In this document: positions 48,676 to 64,000 of the stretch, in pieces
How positions within the stretch are numbered: position 1 is the stretch's first letter
Layout of the letters: every line of letters starts with the position of its first letter
Source of the DNA: an uncultured Chloroflexia bacterium
GTDB lineage: Bacteria; Chloroflexota; Limnocylindria; Limnocylindrales; CSP1-4
DNA length: 64,000 nucleotides
NCBI GenBank assembly: GCA_963833225.1
Contig: CAWHXD010000017.1
Location: 1 to 64,000, forward strand
Direction of reading: 5' to 3'
Notes under the pieces: model-generated
The model's input: only the letters and a program-made list of their open reading frames with translations
Databases searched by the model: none
Told to the model about the DNA's origin: nothing
Translations under genes and position numbers: made by a program

Positions 48676-49518
48676 TCAGGACGGCAGCAGCTGGACCTTG
48701 GTCCGCAGCAGGTCCCAGAAGGGCATCGCGCCCGCCGGCTCCACGAACCGGATCGGTCGCCCGAGCGCCCTGACCTCGACCACGTCGCCCACCTCGACCC
48801 GGTGGTCCTCCCGTCCGTCGATGGAGACCAGGGCCTCGTGGGCATCGAGGATCCGCACCCGGACGACCTGTTCCGGCGACACCACGATGGAGCGGATGGC
48901 GGAGAGATAGCCCGCGATCGGGGTCACGACGAGGTTGCGCCCGTGCGGGTCGAGGATCGGGCCGCCCGCCGAGAACGAGTAGCCCGTGGAGCCGGTCGGG
49001 CTCGCGACGATCAGCCCGTCCGCGATGAACGTCGCGAGGTGCGACTCGTCGATCGTCACCGCGAGCCGGACGACCCGCGCCAGCGACCCCCGGGCCACGA
49101 CGATGTCGTTGAGCGCCGTGAACCGCGTGTCACCCGGCCGGCCGGCGGGCAGGATCGAGCCCGTGAGGCCCATTCGCTCGCCGATGACATAGGCACCCGA
49201 CTGGAGGTGCTCGAGGACCGGCTCCAGCTGGTCCGCCTCCGCCTTGGACAGGAACCCGACCTTGCCGAGGTTGATGCCCAGCAGGGGCACGTCCACCTCG
49301 GCGACCGCCTGCGCGGCACGCAGGAACGTCCCGTCGCCACCGAGCACGACGAGGACGTCCGTGCCCGGGAGCTTGTCGACCAGCATGGCCGTCTCCCCGG
49401 CGGGGACCGCCCAGTTGTCGATGCCCCGGATGCGGCACCAGCCGACGGCCCGTTCGCTGAGCTCGACGGCGTCCTCGATCGTCGGGTTGTACGCGAAGCC
49501 CATGCGGCGAACCGTCAC
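48676..49518 (-). CDS. nadK: NAD kinase
   Basis: LGGDGT, GINLGKVGFL, ASPTGSTGYSFSAGGP. Confidence 0.95.
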   Translation of the reverse strand: MTVRRMGFAYNPTIEDAVELSERAVGWCRIRGIDNWAVPAGETAMLVDKLPGTDVLVVLGGDGTFLRAAQAVAEVDVPLLGINLGKVGFLSKAEADQLEPVLEHLQSGAYVIGERMGLTGSILPAGRPGDTRFTALNDIVVARGSLARVVRLAVTIDESHLATFIADGLIVASPTGSTGYSFSAGGPILDPHGRNLVVTPIAGYLSAIRSIVVSPEQVVRVRILDAHEALVSIDGREDHRVEVGDVVEVRALGRPIRFVEPAGAMPFWDLLRTKVQLLPS

Positions 49519-50339
49519 GTGACATCCTCCCAGGCGACCGCCACCGCGGCGTTGATCCGGTCATCCAGCTCCGCGCTCGAGGGACCGGCCCGGAGCCAGG
49601 CGAGGAACTCGCGGTTCCCCTCGGGCCCCCGGATCGGCGACGCGATCACGTCCCGGGTCCCGAGGCCGAGCTCCCGCGCCGCCGCGGCCGTCTCCCGGAG
49701 CACCCGGGCGTGCACCGCGCGGTCACGCACGACGCCACCCTTCGCATCCGCCCGGCCGGCCTCGAACTGCGGCTTGACCAGCGCGACGATCGACCCCTGT
49801 CCGTCACGCAGCACGGACCGCACGGGCCCAAGCACCAGGGCCAGCGAGATGAAGGCGACGTCGATCACGGCGAGATCCACCGGTTCGGGCAGGCTCGTGC
49901 CGGTGAGGGTCCGGGCGTTGACCCGCTCCATGGACACCACGCGCGGGTCCTGGCGCAGCTTCTCGGCCAGCTGGCCATAGCCGACGTCCACCGCGTATAC
50001 CCGGGACGCGCCCCGGGCGAGCAGCACATCGGTGAACCCGCCGGTCGAGGCGCCAACGTCGACGGCCACGCAGCCGGCCGGGTCGATCCCGAAGGCGTCG
50101 AGGGCGGCGATCAGCTTGTGCGCTCCCCGGCTCGCCCACTCCCGCCCGCCGGCCACGGCGACGCTCGTCGCCCGGTCAACGAGATCGCCCGCCTTGAGGT
50201 CCCGCCTCGCCGCATCGCCCTCGCCAACGTGAACGCGGCCGGCGAGCACCAGGGCCTGCGCCCGGGAGCGGGTGGGCGCGAGCCCGCGCTCCACGAGGAG
50301 CTGATCGAGTCGGACGCGTTTCGCGGTGGCTGCCGGCAT
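49515..50339 (-). CDS. tlyA: TlyA rRNA 2'-O-methyltransferase
   Basis: RLDQLL, SRGAHKL, DVGASTGGFTD, LVKPQFE, GNREFL. Confidence 0.95.
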   Translation of the reverse strand: MPAATAKRVRLDQLLVERGLAPTRSRAQALVLAGRVHVGEGDAARRDLKAGDLVDRATSVAVAGGREWASRGAHKLIAALDAFGIDPAGCVAVDVGASTGGFTDVLLARGASRVYAVDVGYGQLAEKLRQDPRVVSMERVNARTLTGTSLPEPVDLAVIDVAFISLALVLGPVRSVLRDGQGSIVALVKPQFEAGRADAKGGVVRDRAVHARVLRETAAAARELGLGTRDVIASPIRGPEGNREFLAWLRAGPSSAELDDRINAAVAVAWEDVT

Positions 50340-50392
50340 GGCGCCTATCGTGGCACACGCCGCCCAATCCGGACGTATGCCGGAGCGACGAA

Positions 50393-52507
50393 TCAGCCTG
50401 CGTGGGCCGGGATCTCGAGACCCAGTGCGGCCATCGTCTCCTCGACCTGGGCGAGCAGGCCGGGAACGTCGATCCGGATCAGGCGTCGCAGGTCGGTGAC
50501 CGAGCCGTGGTCGACGAAGCGGTCACCCGGGATGCCCAGGATCTTCACCGGCACCGACCGGTACGCCGGGTCGGCCAGGCGGGCCTCCTCGAACGCCTCG
50601 AGCACGCCGCTGCCGAACCCGCCGGTCACGACGCTCTCCTCGAAGGTCACGACCAGCTGCTTGCCACGCGCGGCATCGAGGATGAGCTGTCGGTCGAGCG
50701 GCTTCGCGAACCGGGCGTTGATGACCCCCACCGACCAGCCACGGGCGCCCAAACGATCCGCGACCTCGCTGGCCCGGGCGGTGATGGGGCCGAACCCGAC
50801 GAACAGCAGGTCCCGCCCTTCCCTCAGGACCTCGCCGCGGCCGACCGGCAGCACCTCGGGCTCGCGAACGGGCACGCCGAAGCCCGCGTCCCGCGGGTAG
50901 TGCAGCGCGAACGGATGGTCCTGGGCGAAGGCGGTGCGAACGAGCGAGCGGAGCTCCTGCTCGTCGCGCGGGCTGGCGATCACGAGGTTGGGCAGCATCC
51001 GCTGGGCCGGGATGGTGAACATGCCCTGGTGACTGGTGCCGTCCTCGCCCACCAGCCCCGCACGGTCCACGGCAAGCAGGACCGGGGCATCGTTCTGGCA
51101 GACGTCGTGAACGGTCTGGTCGAAGGCCCGCTGGAGGAAGGTCGAGTACAGCGCCACGACCGGCCGCATGCCTCCCAGCGCGAGGCCCGTGGCAAGCGTG
51201 ACCGCGTGCTGCTCGGCGATCCCGACATCGATGAACCGGTCCGGGTACGCCGCCTGCATCTTCGAGAGGCCGGTGCCGGTGGGCATCCCGGCCGTGATGG
51301 CCACGATCCGCCGATCGTCCGCGGCCAGCGCGACCAGCTCGGCCGCGAAGTGCGCCGTGTAGTTGGGGACCTTCCGGCTGTTCTGGGGGTCCGGCGCCGT
51401 CGCCTTCGCGGGCCCGACGGCAACCCGGTCGCGCCCCCGCCGGTCCGCCATCACCGACGCCGAGGGAGGCGCCCCCTCCTCGGCTTCGTGGGATGGCGAG
51501 ACCGAGGAGCCGCCGGCGGCCGACGACGCCATGCCCTCGCCATGCCCGTTGCCGTTGGCGGCCCCGATGCGATCGTGTGAATCGGTCGCCGGAACGGCGA
51601 TCGGGGGCAACGCGGCGCCGTGGAAGCTGACCTGGTCCGTCTCCGCCGGCCGGTAGCCCTTTCCCTTCTGCGTCCGGACGTGGACGATCACCGGGCCGTT
51701 GAGCGCGAGCGCCCGGCGGAAGGTCTCCTCAAGGAATGGCCGGTCGTGCCCCGGCATGACGCCGACGTAGGTGATCCCCAAGTCCTCGAACAGCTGGCCG
51801 GGCTGGGCGAACGACACCACCGACTGGCGGAAGCGGCGGCTCATCTCCAGCAGGCGGGGGCCGACCACGGGCACGTGCTCGGTGACGGTGTCCCAGGCGC
51901 CCTTGCCCTGCTGCCAGGCCTGGCTCAGCTTGATCTCGGAGAGGTACTTCGAGAGCGCGCCCACGGACGGGCTGATGGACATCTCGTTGTCGTTGAGCAC
52001 GATCAGGAGCTGCGTCTGGCGGTGGCCGATGTCGTTGAGCGCCTCCAGCGACAGCCCCGAGAGGAGCGCCGCGTCACCCACGACGACGGCGATCCGCTCC
52101 ATGGAGTGGCGCAGGTCACGGGCGGTCGCCAGGCCCTGGGCGATGGACAGGCCGGTGCCGGCGTGGCCGCCGTCCATCACGTCGTGGGGCGATTCGCTCC
52201 GCCGCGGAAAGCCGCCGATGCCATCGATCTGGCGGAGCGTGTGGAACCGTTCGAGGCGCCCGGTCAGCAGCTTGTGGGCATAGGCCTGGTGGCCGGTGTC
52301 CCACACGATCCGGTCGCGTGGCGATTCCAGCAGCCGGTGCAGCGCGAGCGTGACCTCGACGACACCGAGCGATGAGCCGAGGTGGCCGCCTGTCGCCGCG
52401 ACCGTGCGGATGATCGTCTCGCGGAGCTCGCCGGCGAGCTGCACGAGCTCTGCCTCGGACAGGCCGCGCAGGTCGGCGGGCTCATGCAGGCGGTCGAGGA
52501 TCGGCAC
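50393..52507 (-). CDS. dxs: 1-deoxy-D-xylulose-5-phosphate synthase
   Basis: GGHLGSSLG, WDTGHQAY, GDAA..NDNEMSI, DVGIAEQHA, YSTFLQRAFDQ. Confidence 0.97.
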   Translation of the reverse strand: MPILDRLHEPADLRGLSEAELVQLAGELRETIIRTVAATGGHLGSSLGVVEVTLALHRLLESPRDRIVWDTGHQAYAHKLLTGRLERFHTLRQIDGIGGFPRRSESPHDVMDGGHAGTGLSIAQGLATARDLRHSMERIAVVVGDAALLSGLSLEALNDIGHRQTQLLIVLNDNEMSISPSVGALSKYLSEIKLSQAWQQGKGAWDTVTEHVPVVGPRLLEMSRRFRQSVVSFAQPGQLFEDLGITYVGVMPGHDRPFLEETFRRALALNGPVIVHVRTQKGKGYRPAETDQVSFHGAALPPIAVPATDSHDRIGAANGNGHGEGMASSAAGGSSVSPSHEAEEGAPPSASVMADRRGRDRVAVGPAKATAPDPQNSRKVPNYTAHFAAELVALAADDRRIVAITAGMPTGTGLSKMQAAYPDRFIDVGIAEQHAVTLATGLALGGMRPVVALYSTFLQRAFDQTVHDVCQNDAPVLLAVDRAGLVGEDGTSHQGMFTIPAQRMLPNLVIASPRDEQELRSLVRTAFAQDHPFALHYPRDAGFGVPVREPEVLPVGRGEVLREGRDLLFVGFGPITARASEVADRLGARGWSVGVINARFAKPLDRQLILDAARGKQLVVTFEESVVTGGFGSGVLEAFEEARLADPAYRSVPVKILGIPGDRFVDHGSVTDLRRLIRIDVPGLLAQVEETMAALGLEIPAHAG

Positions 52508-52648
52508 GGCTGAACGGCTCCTGGTGCTCGGGTGAGACGTCGATGTCTGGACGACCGTGCGCCCGTCGGTGGTGCGTCTCCCCGATGGAAATATGATAGT
52601 CAATGGTAGCAGGATCCTGTGAGCGCCCACGCCAGGCGCCCGGTTCCC

Positions 52649-52924
52649 CTACTCGTCCTCGGCCTCCTCCGGGAGGACATCCACGGCGGCCAGCGCCCCC
52701 CCGGGGCGCGCCATCAGCTGCTGGACCCTCAGCTCGGCCTCGCTGAGCAGCCGCTCGCATCGCCGCTGGAGGGCCACCGCTCGCTCGTACTGCGCGATGG
52801 TCGCCTCGAGCGAGCCGCCGCCGGCCTCGAGGGCCGTGACGACGCGCTGGAGCTCGGCGAAGGCGTCGTCGTAGGCCAGGCTGTCGACGTCTGCCGTCGC
52901 GTCCGGTCCGGGTGTTTCGGTCAC
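52649..52924 (-). CDS. xseB: Exodeoxyribonuclease VII small subunit
   Basis: YDDAFAELQRVVTALE..LEATIAQYERA..C..LL.EAE. Confidence 0.9.
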   Translation of the reverse strand: MTETPGPDATADVDSLAYDDAFAELQRVVTALEAGGGSLEATIAQYERAVALQRRCERLLSEAELRVQQLMARPGGALAAVDVLPEEAEDE

Positions 52925-52958
52925 GGGCGGGCTCCTGTGGGTCGCGGCACGTGGTGGA

Positions 52959-54386
52959 TCATACCGATGGTGGCTCCGCGACCGGGCCATCGCTGGTGGC
53001 CACGAGGCTGCCGCCGGCGAGCGTGAGCCGCAGTCCGGTTCCTGCGGGAGCGGCGGCCGGGTCCCGGAGGATGGCACCATCGGGATCCCGGCGGACGATG
53101 GCATAGCCACGCGCGAGCGTCGCCTGCGGGCCCAGGGCACCGAGCGAGGCCGTCACCGCGGCCAGCCCCGCCGCCGACCGGCGCAGCCTGCCCTCGACGA
53201 GGGCCGGGGCTCGTCCGGTGAGGACCTCGAGGCGCCCGTGCTCCCGGGCCAGGCGGGACGGCAGCAACGTCGCGAGACGCGCGGTCGTGCGCTCGCCGGC
53301 CCGTGCGGTGTCCCGGAGGCGGTCCGCCACGACTCGCGCCGCCCGGTCCAGCAGCAGCCCGGCCCGTTCGCGCGATGCCGCCAGCTGGGCACGGGGCTCG
53401 AGCCGGACGAGCGCCCGCAGCTCGCCGTCGAGGTCGCGGCGACCGGCCGCCACGGCCCGGGCGATGGCGGACTCGGCACGCAGCCCCGCGCGGCGGCATC
53501 GCTCGAACGCCTCCATCCGGTCCGGCACGACGAGCTCCGCGGCGGCCGAGGGCGTGGCCGCCCGGACATCCGCGGCGAAGTCGGCAAGCGTCACGTCCAC
53601 CTCGTGGCCCACCCCGGTGACCACCGGGACGGGGTGAGCGATGACCGCCCGCACGACGCGCTCGTCGTTGAACGACCACAGGTCCTCGAGCGAACCGCCG
53701 CCCCGAGCCAGGATCGTCACGGCGGGGGCGTCGATCACCCGCCCCTCGGCCATCTCCTCGTCGCGGAAGCGCTCCAGCCGTCGCAGCGCCGCCACGATGC
53801 TCTGTGGGGCGCCGTCACCCTGGACCTTGCAGGCGACCAGGAGGACGCGGGCCAGCGGCCAGCGCCGGGCAAGGACCGTGCACACGTCGCGCCAGACGGC
53901 TCCGCTCGGGGACGTGACCACCGCGATCGTCCGGGGACGATCCGGCAGGGGCCGCTTGCGTGACGCGTCGAACAGGCCCTCGTCCGCCAGCCGGGCCTTG
54001 AGCTCCTCGAACCGAAGGGTGAGGTTCCCGAACCCCGACGGCTGCAGCGCCTCCACGTAGAGCTGCAGGGCGCCCTGCGGCTCGAACACGTCCATCCGGC
54101 CGTGCGCGACCACCTGGAGGCCTGTCTGGGGCTGGAACGGCGACCGCACGCGGTCGTCCCGGAACCAGACGCACTGCAGCTGGGCCCGGGCATCCTTGAG
54201 CGTGAAGTAGGCGTGCCCGGCGCTCGACACGGTGACCCGGCCGACCTCGCCCTCGACCCACAGGTCCCGGAGCCCGTCGTCGGAGCGGACGCGGTCCCGG
54301 ATGGCGCGGCTGACCTCGGAGACGGTGCGAACGCGCAGGCCGAACGTGCCGCTCGGGATGGGGCGACCCAGGTCATCCGGGGACAC
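52959..54386 (-). CDS. xseA: Exodeoxyribonuclease VII large subunit
   Basis: GHAYFTLKD, ARGGGSLEDLWSFNDE, GVGHEVD, TPSAAAE. Confidence 0.96.
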   Translation of the reverse strand: MSPDDLGRPIPSGTFGLRVRTVSEVSRAIRDRVRSDDGLRDLWVEGEVGRVTVSSAGHAYFTLKDARAQLQCVWFRDDRVRSPFQPQTGLQVVAHGRMDVFEPQGALQLYVEALQPSGFGNLTLRFEELKARLADEGLFDASRKRPLPDRPRTIAVVTSPSGAVWRDVCTVLARRWPLARVLLVACKVQGDGAPQSIVAALRRLERFRDEEMAEGRVIDAPAVTILARGGGSLEDLWSFNDERVVRAVIAHPVPVVTGVGHEVDVTLADFAADVRAATPSAAAELVVPDRMEAFERCRRAGLRAESAIARAVAAGRRDLDGELRALVRLEPRAQLAASRERAGLLLDRAARVVADRLRDTARAGERTTARLATLLPSRLAREHGRLEVLTGRAPALVEGRLRRSAAGLAAVTASLGALGPQATLARGYAIVRRDPDGAILRDPAAAPAGTGLRLTLAGGSLVATSDGPVAEPPSV

Positions 54387-54406
54387 GGATCGCTCTCCCT
54401 CGCGCG

Positions 54407-54964
54407 TCAGAGGCGGGTCTGGTACTCGCCGGTGCGGGTGTCGATCCGGAGGGTGTCCCCCTCGGTCACGAACAGGGGCACCGTGACCACGAGGCCGGTC
54501 TCCATGGTCGCGTTCTTGCGCGCGCCCTGGGCAGTGTCGCCCGCGTACCCCGGCTCGGTCTCGACCACGAGCAGGTCCACGGTCACCGGGAGCTCGACGC
54601 CGAGGGTGTCGCCCTGGTAGCTCGTCCGGTCGAGCGTCATGCCCTCCTTGAGGAAGCCGACCACGTCATCGAGGGTCTCGGCCCGGAGGCTGAACTGCTC
54701 GTAGGACTCGGTCTCCATGAAATGGAGGTCGTCGCCGTCGCGGTACAGGAACTGGACGGGCCGTCGGTCGATCTGGGCGCGAGGCCAGCGGTCGCCGGCC
54801 TGGAACGACTTCTCGACCGTGCTGCCCTTCTTGACGTTCCGGAGCTTGATCCGGACCTGGGCAGAGCCGCGGCCCATCTTGATGTGGTGGTAGTCGAGGA
54901 TCTGCCACAGGTCGCCGTCAAGCTCGATGACGACGCCCTTGCGCAGCTCTCCGGTGCTGATCAT
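54407..54964 (-). CDS. efp: Elongation factor P
   Basis: HIKMGRGSA, METGLVVTVPLFV..DTRTGEY. Confidence 0.96.
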   Translation of the reverse strand: MISTGELRKGVVIELDGDLWQILDYHHIKMGRGSAQVRIKLRNVKKGSTVEKSFQAGDRWPRAQIDRRPVQFLYRDGDDLHFMETESYEQFSLRAETLDDVVGFLKEGMTLDRTSYQGDTLGVELPVTVDLLVVETEPGYAGDTAQGARKNATMETGLVVTVPLFVTEGDTLRIDTRTGEYQTRL

Positions 54965-55088
54965 CGGGTGTGGTGCTCCGGTGGCGCGTGGCGCGGTCGG
55001 GAGACGTGCAGGCTCGCCGCGCTCGGTCGGTGGGTGTCTCCGGGATGCTACCAGAGGCCGTGCCGACGGCCCTGGGAGGCGGCGCCGG

Positions 55089-56315
55089 TCAGGAGGGCAG
55101 GGCGATCACGGAACGCGGGAACCGGGTCAGGCGCTCCACCACGCCCCGGGCGGCATCGAGGTGGATCAGGTCCTCGATCCGGACGCCGGTCACCCCGTCG
55201 AGATAGACGCCGGGCTCCACGGAGAACACGGTCGGACTGGGCAGCGGGTCGTCGGATGCGCGCCTGGACAGCGATGGCTCCTCGTGGGTCGCCAGGCCGA
55301 TCCCATGCCCGGTGCCGTGACCGAAGTGCGATCCGTGGCCGGCATCCGTGATCAGGTCACGCGCCGCGGCATCGGCGGCCCGGCCACCGACCAGGGCACC
55401 GTTCGCGACGGGCAGCCGCTCCACCGAGGCGGCGATGGCATCGATCGAGGCCTGCTGGGCACGCGCGACCAGGTCGTAGATCTCGAGGTCCCGGGGACGC
55501 GGCTCGCCCACGAACAGGGTCCGTGTCATGTCGCTCCGGTAGCCCTCCACCTGGGCGCCGAAGTCGAACAGGAGGACCTCCCCTGCCAGCACCGGCCGGT
55601 CACCCGGCGACCCGTGCGGCAGGGCGGCCTCGGGGCCGGCGAGGCAGGCGACGTTGAACGCGAGGGCCTCGGCACCACTGGTTCGCATGAGCCACTCGAG
55701 CCGGAGCGCAAGGTCGTGCTCGGTGACGCCGGGCCGGATCTCGGGGAGGAGGGCCGCGAGCGCCCGATCGGCGACCGCGCAGGCGGCCTCGATCCGCTCG
55801 ATCTCGTCGGGGGCCTTTCGCGCGCGCAGGGCCTCGACCCAGCCGTCGACCGCCACGAGCTCCACCTCGGGTGCCGCGGCGGCAAGGCGCGTCCAGAGGG
55901 CATGCGACGTTGCCGCGGCCTCGACCGCCACCCGGCGGGCGCCGGCACGGGCAACCAGCCGTGCCCAGTGCTCGGCCAGGTCATAGCCGATCTCCTCGAC
56001 CACCGCGTCCGGCGCCTCGCGGCGCGCCTGGAGCGTGTACCGGGAGTCCGTCACCAGCAGGACATCGTCGGGTCCCACCAGGAGCTGCCCGGAATGGCCG
56101 GCAACCTTGTCCTCGCCCTCGGCCAGCGTGAACCCGGTGAGCCACCGCATGTGCTCGGGCCGGAGGCCGAAGTAGGCGTCGACGCCGTCGCGCGCCATCC
56201 GCTCGCGCAGGAGCGCCAGGCGCCCCGGCTGCTGCGCGCGCTCCGCCTCGCGCCAGCGAGCGCGGGTGAGGGCATCCGGGGGCGGGGCGAAGTCGGACGG
56301 GACCGGCAGCGACAT
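55089..56315 (-). CDS. Xaa-Pro peptidase (M24B)
   Basis: LPHG, DFGA..YRSDMTRT, HGTGHGIGL..HE, SVEPGVY, GVRIED. Confidence 0.93.
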   Translation of the reverse strand: MSLPVPSDFAPPPDALTRARWREAERAQQPGRLALLRERMARDGVDAYFGLRPEHMRWLTGFTLAEGEDKVAGHSGQLLVGPDDVLLVTDSRYTLQARREAPDAVVEEIGYDLAEHWARLVARAGARRVAVEAAATSHALWTRLAAAAPEVELVAVDGWVEALRARKAPDEIERIEAACAVADRALAALLPEIRPGVTEHDLALRLEWLMRTSGAEALAFNVACLAGPEAALPHGSPGDRPVLAGEVLLFDFGAQVEGYRSDMTRTLFVGEPRPRDLEIYDLVARAQQASIDAIAASVERLPVANGALVGGRAADAAARDLITDAGHGSHFGHGTGHGIGLATHEEPSLSRRASDDPLPSPTVFSVEPGVYLDGVTGVRIEDLIHLDAARGVVERLTRFPRSVIALPS

Positions 56316-56317
56316 CG

Positions 56318-57706
56318 TCAGTTGCCGCCGTACTTCGCCACGTTGCGCTCGTGCTCCGCACGGGTCTTCGCGAACGCGCTCGAGCCAGAGCCGTCACCCT
56401 TGGCGATGAAGAACAGGTAGCCGGTCTTCGTGTCCGGGTTGAGCGCGGCCTCGATCGACGCGAGGGCGGGCGAGCAGATCGGCCCGGGAGGCAGGCCGGC
56501 GCTGGTGTAGGTGTTGTAGCCGGCCAGCTCGTCCGGCAGGGGCACCGGGAGCTGTTCCACCAGCGAATCCCAGAAGACGTACTTGGTCCACCCGGACAGC
56601 TTCATCGCGTCCAGCTGGAGGGTGTCGTTGGTGTAGAAGATCGTGGGATCGGACTGCAGCAGGCCCGTGGGCCACTTCTTGGGGTTGAGCCGGTTCTGGT
56701 AGACACCGGCGATCAGCGGGCGCTCCTCGTCGAGCACCGCCTCGCGCTCCACGATCGAGGCGAGCACCAGCACCTGGTAGAAGGTCAGCCCGCGGCTCTC
56801 CGGGACCTGGAGCCGCTCCTCGCCGACTCGATCGTAGAACGCGTTGAGCATCATCCGGATCAGGTCCTCGGCGCTCGTGGGCGCATCCGCATCGACCCGG
56901 ATCGTGTAGGTCGCCGGATACAGGAACCCCTCGAGGCTGGCTCCCTTGGGGCGGACGCTCTCGTCGATCAGCCACGGGTAGTCCGCGAGCAGCTCGTCGG
57001 GCGGGTTGAGCGCGATGTCGCGGAACGCCCTGGCGTCGACGGACGTGCCGTCGATGGTCAGGAGCTTGGCCACCATCTGCTCGATCCGGAGCCCCTCGCG
57101 GAACGTGATGTCGATCGTCCGGACCACGATCCGGTTCTCCACCAGGCCCTTGACGACCTCGGCCGGCGTCAGGTTGAGGGCCAGCGAGAAATCGCCCGCC
57201 TGGAGCTTGGGGGCGAGGCCATCCATGCGCGCCTGGAACAGGAACACCCGCTCCGACGTGATGATCTTCGCGCCCAGCAGGCGCGGTGCCAGCGTGGCGG
57301 GCGTGTCGCCCGACTCCACCGTGAACTCCACCACGCTGGGGTTCGTCCCGGCGGGCGCCGTGAGGGCGGGCCCCAGGTCCTCGCGCACGAGATCCTGGAT
57401 GAACCCGATGCGCAGGGCCGCCGGATTGTCCTCGGCGAGCGGAACGATGACCAGCCGTGCGATCGGGCGGGCAACGGTGAACAGGGCGACGAGGACGACG
57501 CCGGCCAGCACCAGCAGGAACACGATGAACCCCAGCAGCCCGGTCAGCCCGCCGCGCCGCTGGCCGTAGCGCTCGTACCGCCGCTGGTCGCCGGGACCCC
57601 GCCCGAAGCGTCCGGTCCGCCGGTAGCCGTTGGGCGCCGGACGGGCGGGCTCGGGAACCGGTGGGACGTAGTCCCCGCGCGGGCCACGTCCGCCCCGGAT
57701 GCTCAT
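56318..57706 (-). CDS. mltG: Endolytic transglycosylase MltG
   Basis: TM anchor, LEGFLYPATY, ASIVEREA, LQSDPT, YNTY..GLPPGPI. Confidence 0.94.
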   Translation of the reverse strand: MSIRGGRGPRGDYVPPVPEPARPAPNGYRRTGRFGRGPGDQRRYERYGQRRGGLTGLLGFIVFLLVLAGVVLVALFTVARPIARLVIVPLAEDNPAALRIGFIQDLVREDLGPALTAPAGTNPSVVEFTVESGDTPATLAPRLLGAKIITSERVFLFQARMDGLAPKLQAGDFSLALNLTPAEVVKGLVENRIVVRTIDITFREGLRIEQMVAKLLTIDGTSVDARAFRDIALNPPDELLADYPWLIDESVRPKGASLEGFLYPATYTIRVDADAPTSAEDLIRMMLNAFYDRVGEERLQVPESRGLTFYQVLVLASIVEREAVLDEERPLIAGVYQNRLNPKKWPTGLLQSDPTIFYTNDTLQLDAMKLSGWTKYVFWDSLVEQLPVPLPDELAGYNTYTSAGLPPGPICSPALASIEAALNPDTKTGYLFFIAKGDGSGSSAFAKTRAEHERNVAKYGGN

Positions 57707-58215
57707 GCGTCCGTCCCCAATGGGCGCTCCGGCACGCGGGCCAAGCCCGTGAGGCCAGCCGCCTCTCGACGCGCGTCAAGCTCGTCCTGGAGGATGATGC
57801 TGGCGGCTTCGCGATCGATTCGCGCCCGGTGCGCATCGCGCTGCGTCCGAGACGGTGGGCCGCCCGATCGGCCGCGGGGCATCCGTCCCAGCCGCCGTTC
57901 GGCCTCGAACGATGACAGGCGTTCGTCGCGCAGGGTCACGGGGAGGTCGAGCCGGCTGGCAAGCTCCGAGGCCCAGGCGCGGGCGCCCGCCGCCATCTCG
58001 CCCTCGGTGCCACGGGCCTCGACCGGCAACCCGACGACCAGCTCGCGGACGTCCTGCTCCAGGCACACACGGCCGATCGTGTCGGCATCGGCCTGCGGCG
58101 TGTTTGACCGTCTCACCGTGGACAGGGGCCGGGCGATCCCAATGCCGGCGTCGGCGACGGCCAGGCCGATCCGTCGGGTGCCGAGGTCGACACCCAGGAT
58201 CCGGCTCACCGGCAC
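57703..58215 (-). CDS. ruvX: YqgF/RuvX nuclease
   Basis: LGVDLGTRRIGLA, VVGLP, DERLSS, IDREAA..ILQ. Confidence 0.94.
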   Translation of the reverse strand: MPVSRILGVDLGTRRIGLAVADAGIGIARPLSTVRRSNTPQADADTIGRVCLEQDVRELVVGLPVEARGTEGEMAAGARAWASELASRLDLPVTLRDERLSSFEAERRLGRMPRGRSGGPPSRTQRDAHRARIDREAASIILQDELDARREAAGLTGLARVPERPLGTDA

Positions 58216-58243
58216 GAGACGATCGTCGGGGTGGACTGCAGCA

Positions 58244-60064
58244 TCAGCCGGATGGTACTGGCTGGGAGGGCGTCCCGTCGTCGGCCGGACCGGACGGCGA
58301 CGGCGCCGGCCGGATGGAGGGCAGGACCGGTTCGACGTCCGGCACCGCGTCGACGGCGTCCAGGACGGTCAGCGTCACGCGCGAATTGACCGTGGGAACG
58401 CTCGTGACCATGTCCGGCCAGAGCGCGATGGTCACATCCCCATACGGCTCCAGGAGGGCGCGTGCCTGGTCCGCCGGGAGCCCCATGACCTGCTGGCGGA
58501 GCCGCTCGCCGTCCACCGGCCGGACCTGCTTGGCGACACCGGCGACCGGGAACTCGATGACCCCGTGCCTGACGGTGCCCTCCCCGGCCGACACTTGCGT
58601 CGACCCCTCGACAAGATCCCAGCCCGGCGTGACCGAGTCCGCGAGCGCCCCGGCGGCGATGGCGTCGAGTGGCGACGCATCGACGGCGAGCACGGTCGCG
58701 GTCGCGGTGAGCCCCAGCTCGAATGTCTCGACCTCCACGTTGACGAGGCTCTCCGGATCGACCGTGGGTGTCGCCTCACCAAGGGTCGCCGTCTCCGGGA
58801 AGACCGTCGCCTCGGTGGGAACGCCGTCCGCGTTGTCCACCTGTGCCTCGAACTGCGCCTGCAGATCGACGGCCAGCGTGGCCAGCGCTTCGTCGACGTC
58901 CTTGCGGGAGATCCGGGTGAACTCCTCGCGAGTGCCACCGGTCGTCGGATCCGGATTGGACACCGTGACCAGGTTGCGATCGTAGCGTGCCGGCACGACC
59001 CGGATCCGTCCCGCCTCGACGTTGCCGTCTGGCCCCGGCTTGGCGGCCGTGACCGCGACCTCGGTCGTCTGGCACCTGATCGTCTGCACCGAGCCGCTGC
59101 CCGTGATCTGGGCGACGGGCAGGAACACGGACTCGTCGATCTCGAACTCGATGCCATCCGGCGTCTTGACAGAGGTCCCGGACGAGATCGTGTACGAGGC
59201 CGACGGATCGCAGTTCCGCCAGCGAACCACACCCGTCGCGCGGGTGGTCTCGACGCGCTTGCCCGTGGCCGGGAACTCCGTGGAGACCTCGACCGGGAGG
59301 TCCACCACCTGGGCGGGGATCACGAGCCTGTCCGCATCCACGGCGGTGGCAAGCGGATCCGCGGTGACGACGAGCTCCACGGGACCGACCGCCTCCACCC
59401 GTGGGGCGATGGTGATGTCGGCCGCCGGCAGGAACACGAACGCGGCCACGCCCGCCGCGCCCAGCGCGACCAGCAGGATCAGGACACCCGCCACGAGACC
59501 CGCGCCCGGAAGCCTGCGGGAGGGCCGGACCACGGGCACCTCGCGGCTGCGCCGGACGATCGCCTCAAGCTCGGCCTCGCGGTCAGCCGGGAGGCCTGCC
59601 GCCCCGTCGGCGATGCCGACCTCCTCCGCCGCCGCTGCCGGGGACGGATCGCGCGCCGTTCTGCGCTCCGCCTTATCCGACCCTGGGGACGAGCCCGCGG
59701 TCCGTGCGGCCGGCGCCGACCGAGCGGGCCGCTCCGTCACGTCGCCGGCCGGCGGGGTGTCCGTCGCGGGCTGCCCGGCTGCTGCCGATCCCTCGAGCGC
59801 GTCCTCGTACTCCCCGACCGACCCGAAGACCGGCAGTCCGGCCGACGCGGCCAGCGCCCTCGCGGACGCGTCAGGCGCCACGATGTCCAGCCGGCGCCCG
59901 TTCGCCATCGCCTCACGGGCGAGGAGCCGGAAGTTGATCCGCGACGTCGCGACGCGGGACCCGAACGGGATGACGATCGCCACCCGTGGGTCCGTCGCCT
60001 GGCGGATCCGGGCTGCCGCGGTCGTGATCTCGTCGTCGGGATCGAGGTAGATGATCGCCGCCAT
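58244..60064 (-). CDS. Membrane-anchored baseplate J/gp47-like domain protein
   Basis: N-terminal IYLDPDDEIT domain, Pro/Ala linker, single TM, then ATGVVRW.N..ISSGT.V.T..GIEF..VTAAKPGPDGNV..VSNPDPTTGG typical of baseplate J. Confidence 0.8.
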   Translation of the reverse strand: MAAIIYLDPDDEITTAAARIRQATDPRVAIVIPFGSRVATSRINFRLLAREAMANGRRLDIVAPDASARALAASAGLPVFGSVGEYEDALEGSAAAGQPATDTPPAGDVTERPARSAPAARTAGSSPGSDKAERRTARDPSPAAAAEEVGIADGAAGLPADREAELEAIVRRSREVPVVRPSRRLPGAGLVAGVLILLVALGAAGVAAFVFLPAADITIAPRVEAVGPVELVVTADPLATAVDADRLVIPAQVVDLPVEVSTEFPATGKRVETTRATGVVRWRNCDPSASYTISSGTSVKTPDGIEFEIDESVFLPVAQITGSGSVQTIRCQTTEVAVTAAKPGPDGNVEAGRIRVVPARYDRNLVTVSNPDPTTGGTREEFTRISRKDVDEALATLAVDLQAQFEAQVDNADGVPTEATVFPETATLGEATPTVDPESLVNVEVETFELGLTATATVLAVDASPLDAIAAGALADSVTPGWDLVEGSTQVSAGEGTVRHGVIEFPVAGVAKQVRPVDGERLRQQVMGLPADQARALLEPYGDVTIALWPDMVTSVPTVNSRVTLTVLDAVDAVPDVEPVLPSIRPAPSPSGPADDGTPSQPVPSG

Positions 60065-60072
60065 GGCCGGCG

Positions 60073-61335
60073 CTAGACCTTCATCGCCCGCAGGACCCGG
60101 CGCAGCGCGGTGTCGAGCGGGTCCTCGGATGTCTGGATCTCGATCGCCTGCCAGGCGAGCCCCAGGGGGGTCACGTCCTGCTGGTCCACGAGGAGGTCGG
60201 TGGCATCGCTGATGGCCTCGACCTGGGCGGGAGCCATCACCGACACCTCGGGCGGCCTGGCGAACGGGAGCTGCTTCCAGAACCGCTCCGCGCCCAGCGC
60301 AGCCCGGATCTCGGGCAGCCGGGACCCCCCGCCGCACAGCCAGATTCGCGACGGGAGCATCTCGCCGGCGGCCAGCTCTTCCATGACCAGCTCGACGCCC
60401 GCGGCCCAGACGGCGACGTCATCGCCCACGATGCCCGCGACGGCATCGTGCTCGTCGATCGCGAGCCCGCGCGCATAGTCCACCTTGAGCGCTTCCGCCC
60501 TCGGGAAGGGCAGGTCGAGGCGGTCGGCGATCGACTTGGTGAAAGCCCGGCCACCGAGCGCGAACATCCGGGTGCCCTCGATCCCGCCCTGGCGCACCAG
60601 TGCCACGTCCGTCGTCCCGCCCCCCACGTCCACGAACAGGGCGCCGGCCTGCCGGACCATCTCGGCCCCCAGCACCCGGGCCACCGCGTACGGCTCCGCC
60701 ACCACCTCGAGCAGCTCGAGGTCAAGCTGGCTGGCCACCGACTGGAGCGCTCCGAGATGGACCAGGGGCGCGAACGCATTGAAGATGCCGATCTTGACGT
60801 GGCGCCCCTGGAACCCGACCGGGTTGGACAGCGCATAGCCGTCGATCGAGGCCCCCACGATCGCGCTGTGGACGAGGCGGACGTCGACGTGGGGCAGCCC
60901 CGTCTCCCAGGTGATCGATCGTTCGGCCTCCTTGAGGGCCTCCCGCTGGACGCTGTCGATCAGCTTGACGAGCTCGCCGTCATTGACCGGCAGCTCCGGC
61001 CGCTTGCGCTCCTGCGTGAGCGTCGTCGTGAACCCCTTGACGAGCTCGCCGGCGATGCCGATGACGACCTGGGTCGGCCGGAAGCCGGCCATCTCCTCGG
61101 CCTCCTGGAGAGCGACCGAGCAGTTGTCCACGACCGCCGCGATGTCCGCGACGGTCCCTGACTGCATATGGGACAGGCCCTGTCGCTGGCGGCCGACACC
61201 GCGCACCGTCCCGTGGCCGGTCTCGTCGATCTCGAACACGAGCGCCTTGGCGAACTCGGTCCCGATGTCGAGCGCTGTGCACGCGGCGGGGATCGGGGTC
61301 TCATCGCGGTTCCAGAGGCGGCGGAGGAACGACAT
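60073..61335 (-). CDS. FtsA-like actin-fold ATPase
   Basis: ALDIGT, AEP, VDVGGGTTD, GGRAFT, LCGGGSRL motifs; not in a dcw cluster. Confidence 0.85.
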   Translation of the reverse strand: MSFLRRLWNRDETPIPAACTALDIGTEFAKALVFEIDETGHGTVRGVGRQRQGLSHMQSGTVADIAAVVDNCSVALQEAEEMAGFRPTQVVIGIAGELVKGFTTTLTQERKRPELPVNDGELVKLIDSVQREALKEAERSITWETGLPHVDVRLVHSAIVGASIDGYALSNPVGFQGRHVKIGIFNAFAPLVHLGALQSVASQLDLELLEVVAEPYAVARVLGAEMVRQAGALFVDVGGGTTDVALVRQGGIEGTRMFALGGRAFTKSIADRLDLPFPRAEALKVDYARGLAIDEHDAVAGIVGDDVAVWAAGVELVMEELAAGEMLPSRIWLCGGGSRLPEIRAALGAERFWKQLPFARPPEVSVMAPAQVEAISDATDLLVDQQDVTPLGLAWQAIEIQTSEDPLDTALRRVLRAMKV

Positions 61336-61370
61336 TCAGGCGGCCCCGACCACGGACCCGGCAGCGCGCG

Positions 61371-64000
61371 TCATCCGGGCCCCGCTTGCGCCGTGACGGC
61401 CGAGCGGACCGCCGCCAGCGCGTCACCCAGCCCCTCGCGACGGGACCCCTTCCCCTGGGCCATCTCCGCCCGACCGCCACCACGTCCATCGATCCTGGCC
61501 ACGGCCTGCTGGACGAGCGGCCCGGCCGCGATGCCACGGGCGACGAGGTCGTCGCTGACCGTCACGAACAGCTGCGGCTCGTCGGCGTCGAGCCCGACGG
61601 CGATCACCCCGCTGGGCAACGAGCCGCGGAGGTCCTTCGCGAACGCCTTGAGCGCGTCGATGGACTCCAGGTCCAGGACGGCGCCGACATACCTGACCCC
61701 GGCCCCCAGGTCCTCGGCCTTCGCCGCCAGGTCCCCGGGCCTCGGCCGCGTGCCACCCGTGCCCCCCGCCCGGAGGCGCCGCTTCGCCTCGCGCAGCTCG
61801 TCCTGGAGTGAGGCCACGCGCTCCTCGACGGCATCCGGGCCGCGGGCACCGACCGCCGCGACGGTTCGGTCGAGCGCCGCGAAGCGCTCGACCATCAGGG
61901 CATCCGCGGCGGCACCGGTGACCGCCTCGATCCGGCGCATCCCGGATCCGATGGATCGCTCGCCGGTGATGATGAAGTTGCCGACCTGCCCGGACGCGCG
62001 ACAGTGCGTCCCGCCGCACAGCTCGTGGGAGAAGCCGGCCACGCGGACGGTGCGCACCCGCTCGCCGTACTTCTCGTCGAAGAACGCGTCGGCGCCCGCG
62101 GCCTGCGCCTCTGCCATCGTCATCCACTCCACGCTCACCTCGCGGTCCTCGCGAACCACGCGCCGGACCTCGTCCTCGATGGCCCGCGTCTCCTCGTCGC
62201 TCAGCCCCCGCTCGAACGGGAAGTCAAACCGAAGGTAGTCCGGGTGGACCAGCGACCCCGCCTGGCGGGCGCGATCCCCCACCACGTTTCGGAGCGCGCG
62301 GTGGAGCAGGTGCGTCCCGGTGTGGTTGCGCATCGTGTGCGCCCGACGTGGCGCGTCCACCTCGCAGCGCAGGACGTCGCCGATCGCCACCCGGGCCCGG
62401 AGGAGGCCGCGATGCACGATCAGCCCCGCGCTCTGCGTCCCGGCCACGCGCTGGACATCGTCCACGTCGAACAGGAGGGCCCCGTCGGCGCCGCGCAGCC
62501 AGCCGATGTCACCGACCTGGCCGCCGCTCTCCGCGTAGAACGGCGTGCGGTCGAGCACGATCTCGGCGCGCGCGGCGGCCTCGGCGCGCAGCTCCACCTC
62601 GGGCACGGGCTCCAGCGTCTCGTACTCAGTGCCATCGCGCAGGATGGCGACCACGCGGGCGTCGCCGCTCGTGGCCTCGTAGCCAGTGAACTCGGTGGGC
62701 GCCGTGCGGGCGAGGACGTCCGCGTAGCGGGACGCGGCGAGGTTCGCCTCCGCCAGGCCGGACTTGGTGTGGGAGCGACTCCGCTGCCGCTGCTCGGCAA
62801 GCGCGTCCTGGAACCCGGCCAGGTCCGTCCGCACCCCGTACTCCGCGGCGAGCTCGACGGTGAGGTCGATCGGGAAGCCGTACGTGTCGTGGAGGCGGAA
62901 CGCGACGTCACCCGGGAGCACCGGGGCATCCGCCGGCAGGTGATCGGCCTGGCGGCCGACGGTGCGCGCCTCCGACGTCAGCGAGATCAGGGCATCCTCC
63001 AGGATCCCGACACCCGCCTCGAGCGTCCGGTTGAACTGGCGTTCCTCGCGCTCGATGACGCCCAGGACGTCGGCCCGGCGCTCGGCGAGGTGGGGATAGG
63101 CCCCGGCCATCGTCTCGATCACCACCTTGGCGGTCTCACCCAAGAACGGCTGGTGTCGACCGAGGAGCCGCCCGTGGCGGATCGCCCGGCGCATGATCCG
63201 GCGCAGCACGTAGCCGCGACCCTCGTTGGCGGGCCGGACGCCGTCGGCCACCAGGAACGTCACCGCCCGGCTGTGGTCGGCGATCACCTGGTAGCTGAAC
63301 CGCTCGGCCTCGAACGCGTCGGGGTCGCTGCCCAGCAGCTCGCGCATCCGCTCGTGGATCGGGGCGAACAGGTCGGTGTCGTAGTTGGTGCTCACGCCCT
63401 GGACCACGGACGCGATCCGCTCCAGACCCAGGCCCGTGTCCACGCCGGGGGCGGGAAGCGGCGTCAGCGAGCGATCCGGGTGCAGCTCGAACTCCATGAA
63501 CACGAGGTTCCAGACCTCGAGCCAGCGCGGGCAGTGTTCGCTGTGATCCGGGACGCAATCGGGACCCTCGGACAGGTGCGCGCCCCGGTCGTAGTGGATC
63601 TCCGAGCACGGGCCGGACGGTCCCACATCGCCCATCCGCCACCAGTTGGCCTCGTCGCCGGCCGGGAAGTCGCCCCAGCGCACGAGCCGGTCCTCGGTCA
63701 GACCAATCTCGTCCTTCCAGATGGCATGGGCGACATCGTCGGTCGTGTAGACCGTCGCCGCCAGCCGCTCCGCCGGGATCCCGAGGTCCCGGGTAAGGAA
63801 GTCCCAGGCCCAGTGGATGGCTTCGCGCTTGAAGTAGTCGCCAAAGCTCCAGTTGCCCAGCATCTCGAACAGGGTGTGGTGGCGCGGCGTGCGGCCGACC
63901 TCCTCGAAGTCGTTGTGCTTGCCCGCGACGCGCAGGCAGCGCTGGTAGTCCACGGCGCGCGTGTACTCGCGCTTCTCCACGCCCGTGAGCGCGTCCTTGA
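61371..64000 (-). CDS. alaS: Alanine--tRNA ligase (5' end outside window)
   Basis: HHTLFEMLGNWSFGDYFK, DTGLGLER, HTGTHLLH, ELCGGTH, GGGRAEMAQG. Confidence 0.98.
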   Translation of the reverse strand, partial: KDALTGVEKREYTRAVDYQRCLRVAGKHNDFEEVGRTPRHHTLFEMLGNWSFGDYFKREAIHWAWDFLTRDLGIPAERLAATVYTTDDVAHAIWKDEIGLTEDRLVRWGDFPAGDEANWWRMGDVGPSGPCSEIHYDRGAHLSEGPDCVPDHSEHCPRWLEVWNLVFMEFELHPDRSLTPLPAPGVDTGLGLERIASVVQGVSTNYDTDLFAPIHERMRELLGSDPDAFEAERFSYQVIADHSRAVTFLVADGVRPANEGRGYVLRRIMRRAIRHGRLLGRHQPFLGETAKVVIETMAGAYPHLAERRADVLGVIEREERQFNRTLEAGVGILEDALISLTSEARTVGRQADHLPADAPVLPGDVAFRLHDTYGFPIDLTVELAAEYGVRTDLAGFQDALAEQRQRSRSHTKSGLAEANLAASRYADVLARTAPTEFTGYEATSGDARVVAILRDGTEYETLEPVPEVELRAEAAARAEIVLDRTPFYAESGGQVGDIGWLRGADGALLFDVDDVQRVAGTQSAGLIVHRGLLRARVAIGDVLRCEVDAPRRAHTMRNHTGTHLLHRALRNVVGDRARQAGSLVHPDYLRFDFPFERGLSDEETRAIEDEVRRVVREDREVSVEWMTMAEAQAAGADAFFDEKYGERVRTVRVAGFSHELCGGTHCRASGQVGNFIITGERSIGSGMRRIEAVTGAAADALMVERFAALDRTVAAVGARGPDAVEERVASLQDELREAKRRLRAGGTGGTRPRPGDLAAKAEDLGAGVRYVGAVLDLESIDALKAFAKDLRGSLPSGVIAVGLDADEPQLFVTVSDDLVARGIAAGPLVQQAVARIDGRGGGRAEMAQGKGSRREGLGDALAAVRSAVTAQAGPG

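Follow-up and report, generated by a model that had tools for sequence, protein, structure and literature searches.

Gene organization of the locus

An FtsA-type actin paralogue of 420 amino acids (aa) and a bitopic membrane protein of 606 aa with a baseplate-J-like outer module were encoded side by side in a stretch of 64,000 nucleotides (nt), hereafter the window, from the genome of an uncultured Chloroflexia bacterium of the Limnocylindrales (GenBank assembly GCA_963833225.1, contig CAWHXD010000017.1, positions 1 to 64,000). The pair lies in a run of five co-directional open reading frames (ORFs) on the minus strand, namely alaS, the 420-aa ORF, the 606-aa ORF, ruvX and mltG (Table 1). An earlier note on this DNA had described an actin-fold ATPase located 8 bp from a bitopic protein, both intact and oriented with core genes including mltG. 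The ORF and Pfam reading agreed with this description in the lengths of the two proteins, the 8-nt spacing between their genes, the orientation and the N-terminal sequence of the 606-aa protein, the translation of which begins MAAIIYLDPDDEIT.

The gaps between consecutive genes from alaS through to an M24 aminopeptidase gene were 35, 8, 28, -4 and 2 nt, the negative value being a 4-nt overlap of ruvX and mltG. The G+C content of the region was 70-74% and spurious overlapping frames were abundant. A longer start of the 606-aa frame (to position 60337) was rejected, as it overlaps the actin gene and is absent from the homologues. Beyond mltG the co-directional string ran on along the minus strand (49515-56315) with the M24 aminopeptidase (pepP), efp, xseA, dxs and an S4/FtsJ-type methyltransferase.

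Within the annotated 14.5 kb (49515-63980) there were no sheath, tube, spike, ftsZ or pil genes, as the earlier note had remarked of the surroundings, and no gp25 or gp7/Tail_P2_I genes. The 16 sequencing runs listed for the locus were all DNA with small shares, and no RNA run was among them.

Table 1. Genes of the locus and parts of the bitopic protein, in positions of the window
Feature	Position	Strand	Evidence or remark
alaS	61371-63980	-	Pfam tRNA-synt_2c, 526.9 bits; neighbour upstream of the actin
FtsA-type actin paralogue, 420 aa (P0001)	60073-61335	-	Pfam FtsA, AlphaFold2 fold, nucleotide-binding motifs
Bitopic protein, 606 aa (P0005), with baseplate-J-like outer module	58244-60064	-	Pfam Baseplate_J, phrog_6, AlphaFold2 model
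Cytoplasmic N-terminal alpha/beta domain, residues 1-95 (folded 1-92)	59780-60064	-	pLDDT 94-97; predicted actin docking site
Disordered Pro/Ala/Gly-rich cytoplasmic linker, about residues 94-187	59504-59785	-	pLDDT <50 for residues 94-159 and 173-187
Single transmembrane helix, residues 189-211	59432-59500	-	Helix in AlphaFold2 model; hydrophobic stretch after Arg-rich residues
Extracytoplasmic beta-barrel (baseplate-J barrel), residues 272-379	58928-59251	-	VIA matches
Remaining outer domains, residues 380-606: long helix, two alpha/beta domains, low-complexity tail	58247-58927	-	DSSP, pLDDT
ruvX (YqgF-type nuclease)	57703-58215	-	Pfam RuvX, 116.6 bits; downstream neighbour
mltG (YceG-family peptidoglycan enzyme)	56318-57706	-	Pfam YceG, 220.5 bits; downstream neighbour

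An additional FtsA-type actin

The 420-aa protein matched Pfam FtsA (PF14450) with 56.1 bits (cut-off 31.8) and remained under the cut-offs of the FtsA equivalog family TIGR01174 (98.4 bits, cut-off 175.85), the pilM family TIGR01175 (29 bits, 27.8 bits in the genome scan, cut-off 133) and the mreB family TIGR00904 (31.9 bits, cut-off 365.75). The IC subdomain family SHS2_FTSA (PF02491) gave no match at E<=0.1. An AlphaFold2 (AF2) model with a predicted local distance difference test (pLDDT) score of 88.8 was aligned by VIA to Vibrio maritimus FtsA (7q6f_A) with a Z of 40.3 and a root mean square deviation (rmsd) of 2.6 A over 352 of 382 residues. This alignment spans actin residues 17-401, and the fold has the IC subdomain in place of IB. 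PilM reached a Z of 32 and MreB a Z of 24, with the MreB-RodZ entry PDB 2wus among the matches. The phosphate-binding and adenosine motifs were kept among 29 orthologues, in which residues D23, G25, T26, D236, G238, G239, T242 and G335-G337 were invariant or nearly so.

The final 11 residues carry an amphipathic hydrophobic and basic pattern that is conserved in the 29 orthologues, with a helix modelled at 406-418. This pattern recalls the membrane helix of FtsA and may serve in membrane binding; FtsA attaches to the membrane through a C-terminal amphipathic helix, as outlined in a preprint (bioRxiv 10.1101/2021.11.08.467742). A short basic and hydrophobic segment at residues 1-12 (61300-61335) was also conserved and was modelled with low confidence as a helix at residues 3-8, so that both ends of the actin may be amphipathic.

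The best 120 database relatives were 82-95% identical to the actin and nearly all exactly 420 aa long, and database sources label the protein "cell division protein FtsA". The canonical ftsA of the same genome was found on another contig (C8), beside ftsZ in the order ftsW-murG-ddl-ftsQ-ftsA-ftsZ, with 407.5 bits to TIGR01174 and 96.9 bits to SHS2; the earlier note had asked for such a separate gene. Two MreB genes scored above the cut-off elsewhere in the genome, and no PilM above the cut-off was found in this genome, which is 86% complete. Both kinds of FtsA were present in all five of the other actin-carrying genomes that were checked.

A FastTree tree of 50 rows, with ORFs picked by phmmer and all FtsA rows taken from the phylum, placed 30 paralogues, 11 canonical FtsA proteins and 9 MreB proteins each in one group (support 99, 95 and 100, respectively). 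Of the placement against FtsA, PilM and MreB for which the earlier note had called, the tree thus covers the separation from FtsA and MreB, and the distinction from PilM is drawn from the family scores. The actin is confirmed as an extra FtsA-type paralogue with a clade of its own, neither the division FtsA nor PilM nor MreB, in line with the orphan FtsA-like actin that had been proposed.

Domain architecture of the bitopic protein

The AF2 model of the 606-aa protein had a mean pLDDT of 83.5 and bore out the layout read earlier from the sequence, that is a cytoplasmic alpha/beta domain, a linker, one transmembrane helix and an outer region. The beta-rich region 212-570 was folded confidently. 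An N-in/C-out topology is likely from the positive-inside rule.

The N-terminal domain (N-domain) gave middling VIA matches to STAS domains of RsbR/RsbS and SLC26 (Z 7.6-8.1, rmsd 2.6-3.7 A, 93-96 residues aligned), and the Pfam STAS and helix-turn-helix families had no match in the protein. A weak Pfam match to the TY-Chap C-terminal domain (E 0.095) was rejected; TY-Chap is outlined in PMC9503650 as a T3SS/YbjN-type chaperone of ADP-ribose conflict systems. The linker varies widely in length among homologues and its alignment is gappy. Forms of about 880-900 aa were seen at three loci, two of them in one family (f23; L057 1846-4527 and L068 1939-4578) and one in a Ktedonobacteraceae metagenome-assembled genome (MAG; L008 6001-8565), and owe their length to a disordered linker that is ~300 residues longer. 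Genomes of one genus (g66) carry a second open frame of 913-994 aa that begins with the same N-domain. The barrel was the best-conserved part of the family, with N348, G376 and G377 invariant in 36 sequences.

Relationship to phage baseplate wedge proteins

The outer module is related to the baseplate wedge protein J (gp6/gp47) of phages and contractile injection systems (CIS), a relationship supported by sequence profiles and by structure. Pfam Baseplate_J (PF04865) matched residues 270-426 with 33.1 bits (cut-off 21.1) over profile positions 17-158 of 255, which covers the barrel and the helix that follows, and the PHROG family phrog_6, "baseplate wedge subunit", matched residues 273-381 (E 2.3e-11). 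The barrel was superposed by VIA on the baseplate proteins of phiCD508 (9gb2_G; Z 14.6, rmsd 2.0 A, 90 residues aligned), cyanophage A-1(L) (8kea_d; Z 14.3, rmsd 2.2 A, 95 aligned) and Mu (9ki1_H; Z 12.2). The oxidase GlxA (5lxz) was matched at a similar level (Z 13.4-14.0, rmsd 1.8-2.0 A, 96-103 residues aligned), and a weak Pfam match to the GlxA barrel was also present.

A Foldseek search of the PDB returned 24 matches at E<=0.001, of which the top seven were all phage baseplates (A-1(L), phi812, phiCD508 and Mu) and the others mostly tail baseplates (XM1, AFP and diffocin) together with GlxA chains. In BFVD there were 65 matches at the same threshold; many were nameless and the named ones were nearly all baseplate J or wedge proteins. 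Foldseek alignments extended beyond the barrel to the C-termini of wedge proteins, with 339-369 columns on proteins of 347-386 residues (E 1.2e-8 to 8.1e-7), and the VIA rows across residues 270-573 aligned 142-163 residues. The baseplate-J character that the earlier note had assigned to the whole outer region was therefore upheld as a rigid-body fold for the barrel; along the later domains the similarity was colinear, without a global superposition. The N-terminal part of the wedge proteins had no counterpart, the transmembrane helix and a beta-hairpin region (214-265) standing there instead. Compared by sequence with the PDB, the bitopic protein yielded a chance match only (E 0.36).

The bitopic protein differs from the wedge proteins known from T4 (gp6), Mu (gp47), P2 (gpJ), Afp11 and TssF, with which it shares the above-cut-off Pfam match, the barrel (Z 12-14.6 and rmsd ~2 A to phiCD508, A-1(L) and Mu) and, by Foldseek, a colinear alignment of the later domains, in several respects. 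Wedge proteins are soluble, whereas the bitopic protein is membrane-anchored with a 188-residue N-terminal region ahead of the helix at 189-211. Its gene is not accompanied by genes for gp25, gp7/I, sheath, tube or spike and is single-copy, located in a core operon and inherited within a bacterial phylum. With GlxA, a radical copper oxidase of Streptomyces lividans in which the barrel is inserted, the bitopic protein has in common the barrel fold and a non-phage setting, but the barrel alone is shared and the oxidase domain is lacking.

A complete-looking contractile tail or injection-system cluster, the only one found in the genome, was located off the window contig on C8 (locus L074 2450-13118; G000:C8 about 646450-657120). 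It comprises a sheath gene, two gp19-type tube genes, a Phage_base_V spike, gp25, a 648-aa Baseplate_J protein and Tail_P2_I, followed by a zinc-ribbon protein. The J protein of this cluster had no pairwise similarity to the bitopic protein (BLASTP E 2.5).

Distribution and synteny in the Chloroflexota

The distribution of the locus was surveyed in 301 Chloroflexota species genomes, the tallies including five unpublished genomes (G173, G272, G038, G227 and G145) on which no conclusion rests. The bitopic protein as a single-sequence query was found in 148 genomes (E<=1e-5), its N-domain alone in 143 (E<=0.001), the actin orthologue in 92 (E<=1e-40) and mltG in 264 (E<=1e-10). A profile search of 12 loci from families or genera where the single-sequence search found nothing recovered the locus in two of them (L082, with a divergent actin, and L080), and the single-sequence counts are therefore lower bounds.

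The N-domain was present in all 92 actin genomes and its gene was directly downstream of the actin on the same strand in 91 of them (median 47 nt between matches), the sole exception being a contig end. The co-occurrence expected by the earlier note thus held in one direction, the actin being found beside its partner; the bitopic gene was more widespread and the pair is not obligate. One family (f9) had the bitopic gene in 18 of 19 genomes, with the N-domain and without the actin, and another (f20) had it in 17 of 17 with neither actin nor N-domain. In the latter family a short form without the N-domain (466 aa in L050, 6607-8007; also in L046 and L052) was located directly between alaS and ruvX, and the actin was found in 0 of 17 genomes. 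Identity among orthologues was 44-57% for the actin against 20-36% for the bitopic partner. A 692-aa protein (P0130) considered as a natural actin-partner (Rosetta-stone) fusion was rejected, as it proved to be a frameshifted read-through gene call in another assembly with in-frame and out-of-frame pieces of the partner.

The gene order alaS-(actin)-bitopic-ruvX-mltG was kept across many families. The bitopic gene was followed by ruvX in all 33 loci of a first set and all seven of a further one, and by mltG in 32 of the 33 and all seven; in many loci alaS immediately preceded either the actin or the bitopic gene. The placing of the pair as host genes within a housekeeping operon, as first noted from the window, was thereby extended to synteny conserved throughout the phylum. 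None of the 9 genomes of a family that lacks mltG (f19) gave a match to the bitopic gene, and a manual comparison of two genome tables gave one fragmented genome (G213) as the only bitopic-positive genome without an mltG match. In one locus (L051) a 372-aa ORF upstream of the bitopic gene had no Pfam match at E<=0.01. Many bitopic matches (for example G124:C20:39392-41242, G088:C101, G277:C58 and several genomes of genus g62) were flagged "1 TGA" inside the match, which may mean no more than that the alignment continues beyond the stop codon, into the low-complexity tail or a following gene.

In database searches the bitopic family comprised 4908 cluster representatives at E<=0.001, a number that fell to 273 at E<=1e-30. 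The relatives bore the names of MAG proteins from Chloroflexota, Limnocylindrales and Ktedonobacteraceae, and the locus is present in a Ktedonobacteraceae genome. Outside the phylum, two ESM Atlas clusters of ~542-aa proteins, commonest in Candidatus Saccharimonadota, scored 0.91-0.92 to the bitopic protein, and one of them was named "putative baseplate J/gp47 family protein". For the similarly annotated pairs in Patescibacteria that the earlier note had mentioned, these two clusters make a weak lead.

Predicted complex of the actin and the N-domain

A complex of the actin with residues 1-95 of the partner was predicted from our own alignments (29 and 36 rows, respectively) together with three controls. 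The median ipSAE was 0.66 (runs of 0.63, 0.66 and 0.69) against 0.00 for the best control, the runs shared >=98% of contacts and the partner pLDDT was >=86. Among solved complexes 58 of 80 attain this mark, as do 2 of 110 mismatched pairs, counts that hold only roughly here because the alignments were our own. The predicted contacts of the actin were residues 58-59, 97, 144-147, 258-272 and 305-317, a surface that from its position in the fold we read as mainly the IIB region, and those of the partner were residues 12-15, 17-18, 21, 37, 40-44, 46-47, 50-51, 67 and 70-71. Binding of the actin to the cytoplasmic N-domain of its bitopic neighbour, as the earlier note had suggested, is thus supported in silico.

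Interpretation of the pair

The logic of such a pair is familiar by analogy from MreB-RodZ, FtsA-FtsN and PilM-PilN; its parts are new. RodZ has a folded cytoplasmic helix-turn-helix domain, a linker, one transmembrane helix and a beta-rich outer domain. The window pair resembles MreB-RodZ in joining an actin-fold ATPase to a bitopic adaptor of this general layout, in the cytoplasmic domain being the predicted docking site and in a putative link to wall growth. It differs in that the actin is FtsA-type with an IC subdomain and matches MreB only at a Z of 24, and in that the cytoplasmic domain is alpha/beta and STAS-like rather than helix-turn-helix and the outer module baseplate-J-like. With FtsA-FtsN and PilM-PilN it would share a membrane-tethered protein of the FtsA/PilM fold that takes hold of a bitopic partner at the cytoplasmic end of the latter. 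FtsN and PilN are bound as short peptides in the IA-IC cleft, as outlined in the same preprint (bioRxiv 10.1101/2021.11.08.467742), whereas the docking element of the window pair is a folded domain of 92 residues, placed by the prediction mainly on helices 258-272 and 305-317, off that cleft. The FtsA and PilM family cut-offs were also not reached, and the window gene lies neither in the dcw cluster nor next to pil genes.

The observations above on gene structure, folds, paralogy, synteny and distribution are most readily accommodated by a vertically inherited host envelope module of the Chloroflexota in which an actin is coupled to a transmembrane adaptor, probably in wall growth or division, a reading that we hold with moderate confidence. 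The bitopic baseplate-J-like protein would be the older and more widespread core, and some lineages of the phylum would have recruited a dedicated FtsA paralogue, or have lost it later. The actin would sit at the inner face of the membrane, where the surface formed by 258-272 and 305-317, with 58-59, 97 and 144-147, may grip the N-domain of the partner. Such binding could position or cluster the outer baseplate-J-like modules, so that the actin would tether or organise the bitopic protein from the cytoplasmic side in the manner of the analogous systems. In this reading the actin would bind the membrane and polymerise and the outer domains would oligomerise; these points, like the cellular process served, are inferred. 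Peptidoglycan or envelope growth or division is the most likely process because the gene almost always precedes ruvX-mltG and was not found in mltG-less families; the operon position and this absence are suggestive of a link to wall growth. The earlier note had gone further and proposed a host-domesticated wedge protein forming a trans-envelope ring or scaffold driven by the actin; the domestication, the ring and the drive by the actin are conceivable for the bitopic protein.

Several observations weigh against this reading of the pair. At least 51 of the 143 N-domain genomes had no actin orthologue at E<=1e-40, and all five of the actin-less genomes checked had only canonical FtsA and MreB-like matches; because the bitopic protein occurs without the actin, the actin cannot be essential to its core role. 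The predicted interface was no better conserved than the rest of the actin (0.61 against 0.63 elsewhere, with 6820 of 10000 random sets reaching the interface value) and about as conserved as the rest of the N-domain (0.57 against 0.54, reached by 2078 of 10000). Several families carry mltG and lack the bitopic gene, for example f13 (0 of 18) and f16 (0 of 12), and in 4 of the 12 inspected loci alaS-ruvX-mltG had nothing inserted. The alaS-ruvX-mltG string is old and conserved in Firmicutes and Actinobacteria, and the adjacency may for this reason be an inherited position and not a functional coupling. On the side of the outer module, the Foldseek match to wedge proteins beyond the barrel was colinear only (rmsd 33-48 A), and the barrel fold occurs also in the non-phage oxidase GlxA.

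One alternative is that the members of the pair act separately. The bitopic protein would then have an envelope role of its own, and the actin would be a second FtsA of the divisome or elongasome, perhaps with FtsZ or some other protein as its partner, that has simply stayed at this site. The presence of the bitopic gene without the actin in many families, the lack of conservation enrichment at the interface and an N-domain sequence pattern that is similar with and without the actin would all be expected from separate roles. We nevertheless consider this unlikely, though the most serious of the alternatives, in view of the N-domain gene being directly downstream in 91 of 92 actin genomes, the 8-nt gap, the failure to find any actin orthologue without the N-domain gene beside it save the contig-end case, and the complex prediction of 0.66 against 0.00 for the controls.

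Slightly less plausible is that the pair serves as an assembly platform for a surface structure, such as an appendage, sheath, S-layer anchor or secretion device, in the way of PilM-PilN for type IV pili and apart from wall growth. The FtsA/PilM-type fold (PilM Z 32) fits such a role, baseplate J proteins build large extracellular assemblies to judge by the titles of the structural matches, and Chloroflexota envelopes are described as unusual in the literature. The operon, however, has no pilin, secretin, ATPase or other structural gene, its place in the housekeeping string is conserved and the PilM scores were far under the cut-off.

That the bitopic protein belongs to, or is left over from, a phage tail or contractile injection system, for instance as membrane anchor for the CIS of this genome, appears very improbable. 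The Pfam Baseplate_J match and the sheath, tube, gp25, J and Tail_P2_I cluster on C8 speak for it, but the cluster itself encodes a J protein, to which the bitopic protein shows no detectable pairwise similarity (BLASTP E 2.5), and the window gene lies among core genes with phylum-wide synteny, encodes a transmembrane helix and has no gp25, gp7/I, sheath or tube neighbours. That the actin is simply the FtsA, PilM or MreB of the organism, as its database name "cell division protein FtsA" and its FtsA fold might imply, is refuted by scores under the cut-offs of all three families, the canonical ftsA beside ftsZ on C8, the two MreB genes above cut-off elsewhere and the separate clade in the tree.

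Within the envelope module that we favour, a bolder version is that the membrane-anchored cellular wedge homologue forms an extracytoplasmic ring or lattice that is placed by a dedicated FtsA-type filament inside the cell, the whole being a trans-envelope machine for wall growth or division. This version is speculative, and we rate it no higher than the surface platform.

Implications for Chloroflexota cell biology

The cell biology of the Chloroflexota is little studied and their envelope is atypical, and the pair is among the best-conserved uncharacterised loci beside a wall enzyme in the phylum, with the bitopic gene in at least 148 of 301 genomes. A functional study of the pair was not found in literature on baseplate J with FtsA or actin-like proteins, Chloroflexota or Patescibacteria, and the earlier note had likewise known of none. 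To FtsA and PilM the actin adds a third member type of the FtsA family. With its partner it would make an actin-adaptor pair of a new type, the predicted docking site of the folded domain being outside the IA-IC cleft, and the partner would be the first case found of a baseplate-wedge homologue serving as a core membrane protein. Should the ring or lattice reading be true, the locus would encode a previously unrecognised trans-envelope cytoskeletal machine of the Chloroflexota and perhaps of the Saccharimonadota, and baseplate J would share its ancestry with a core envelope protein, with either direction of descent possible.

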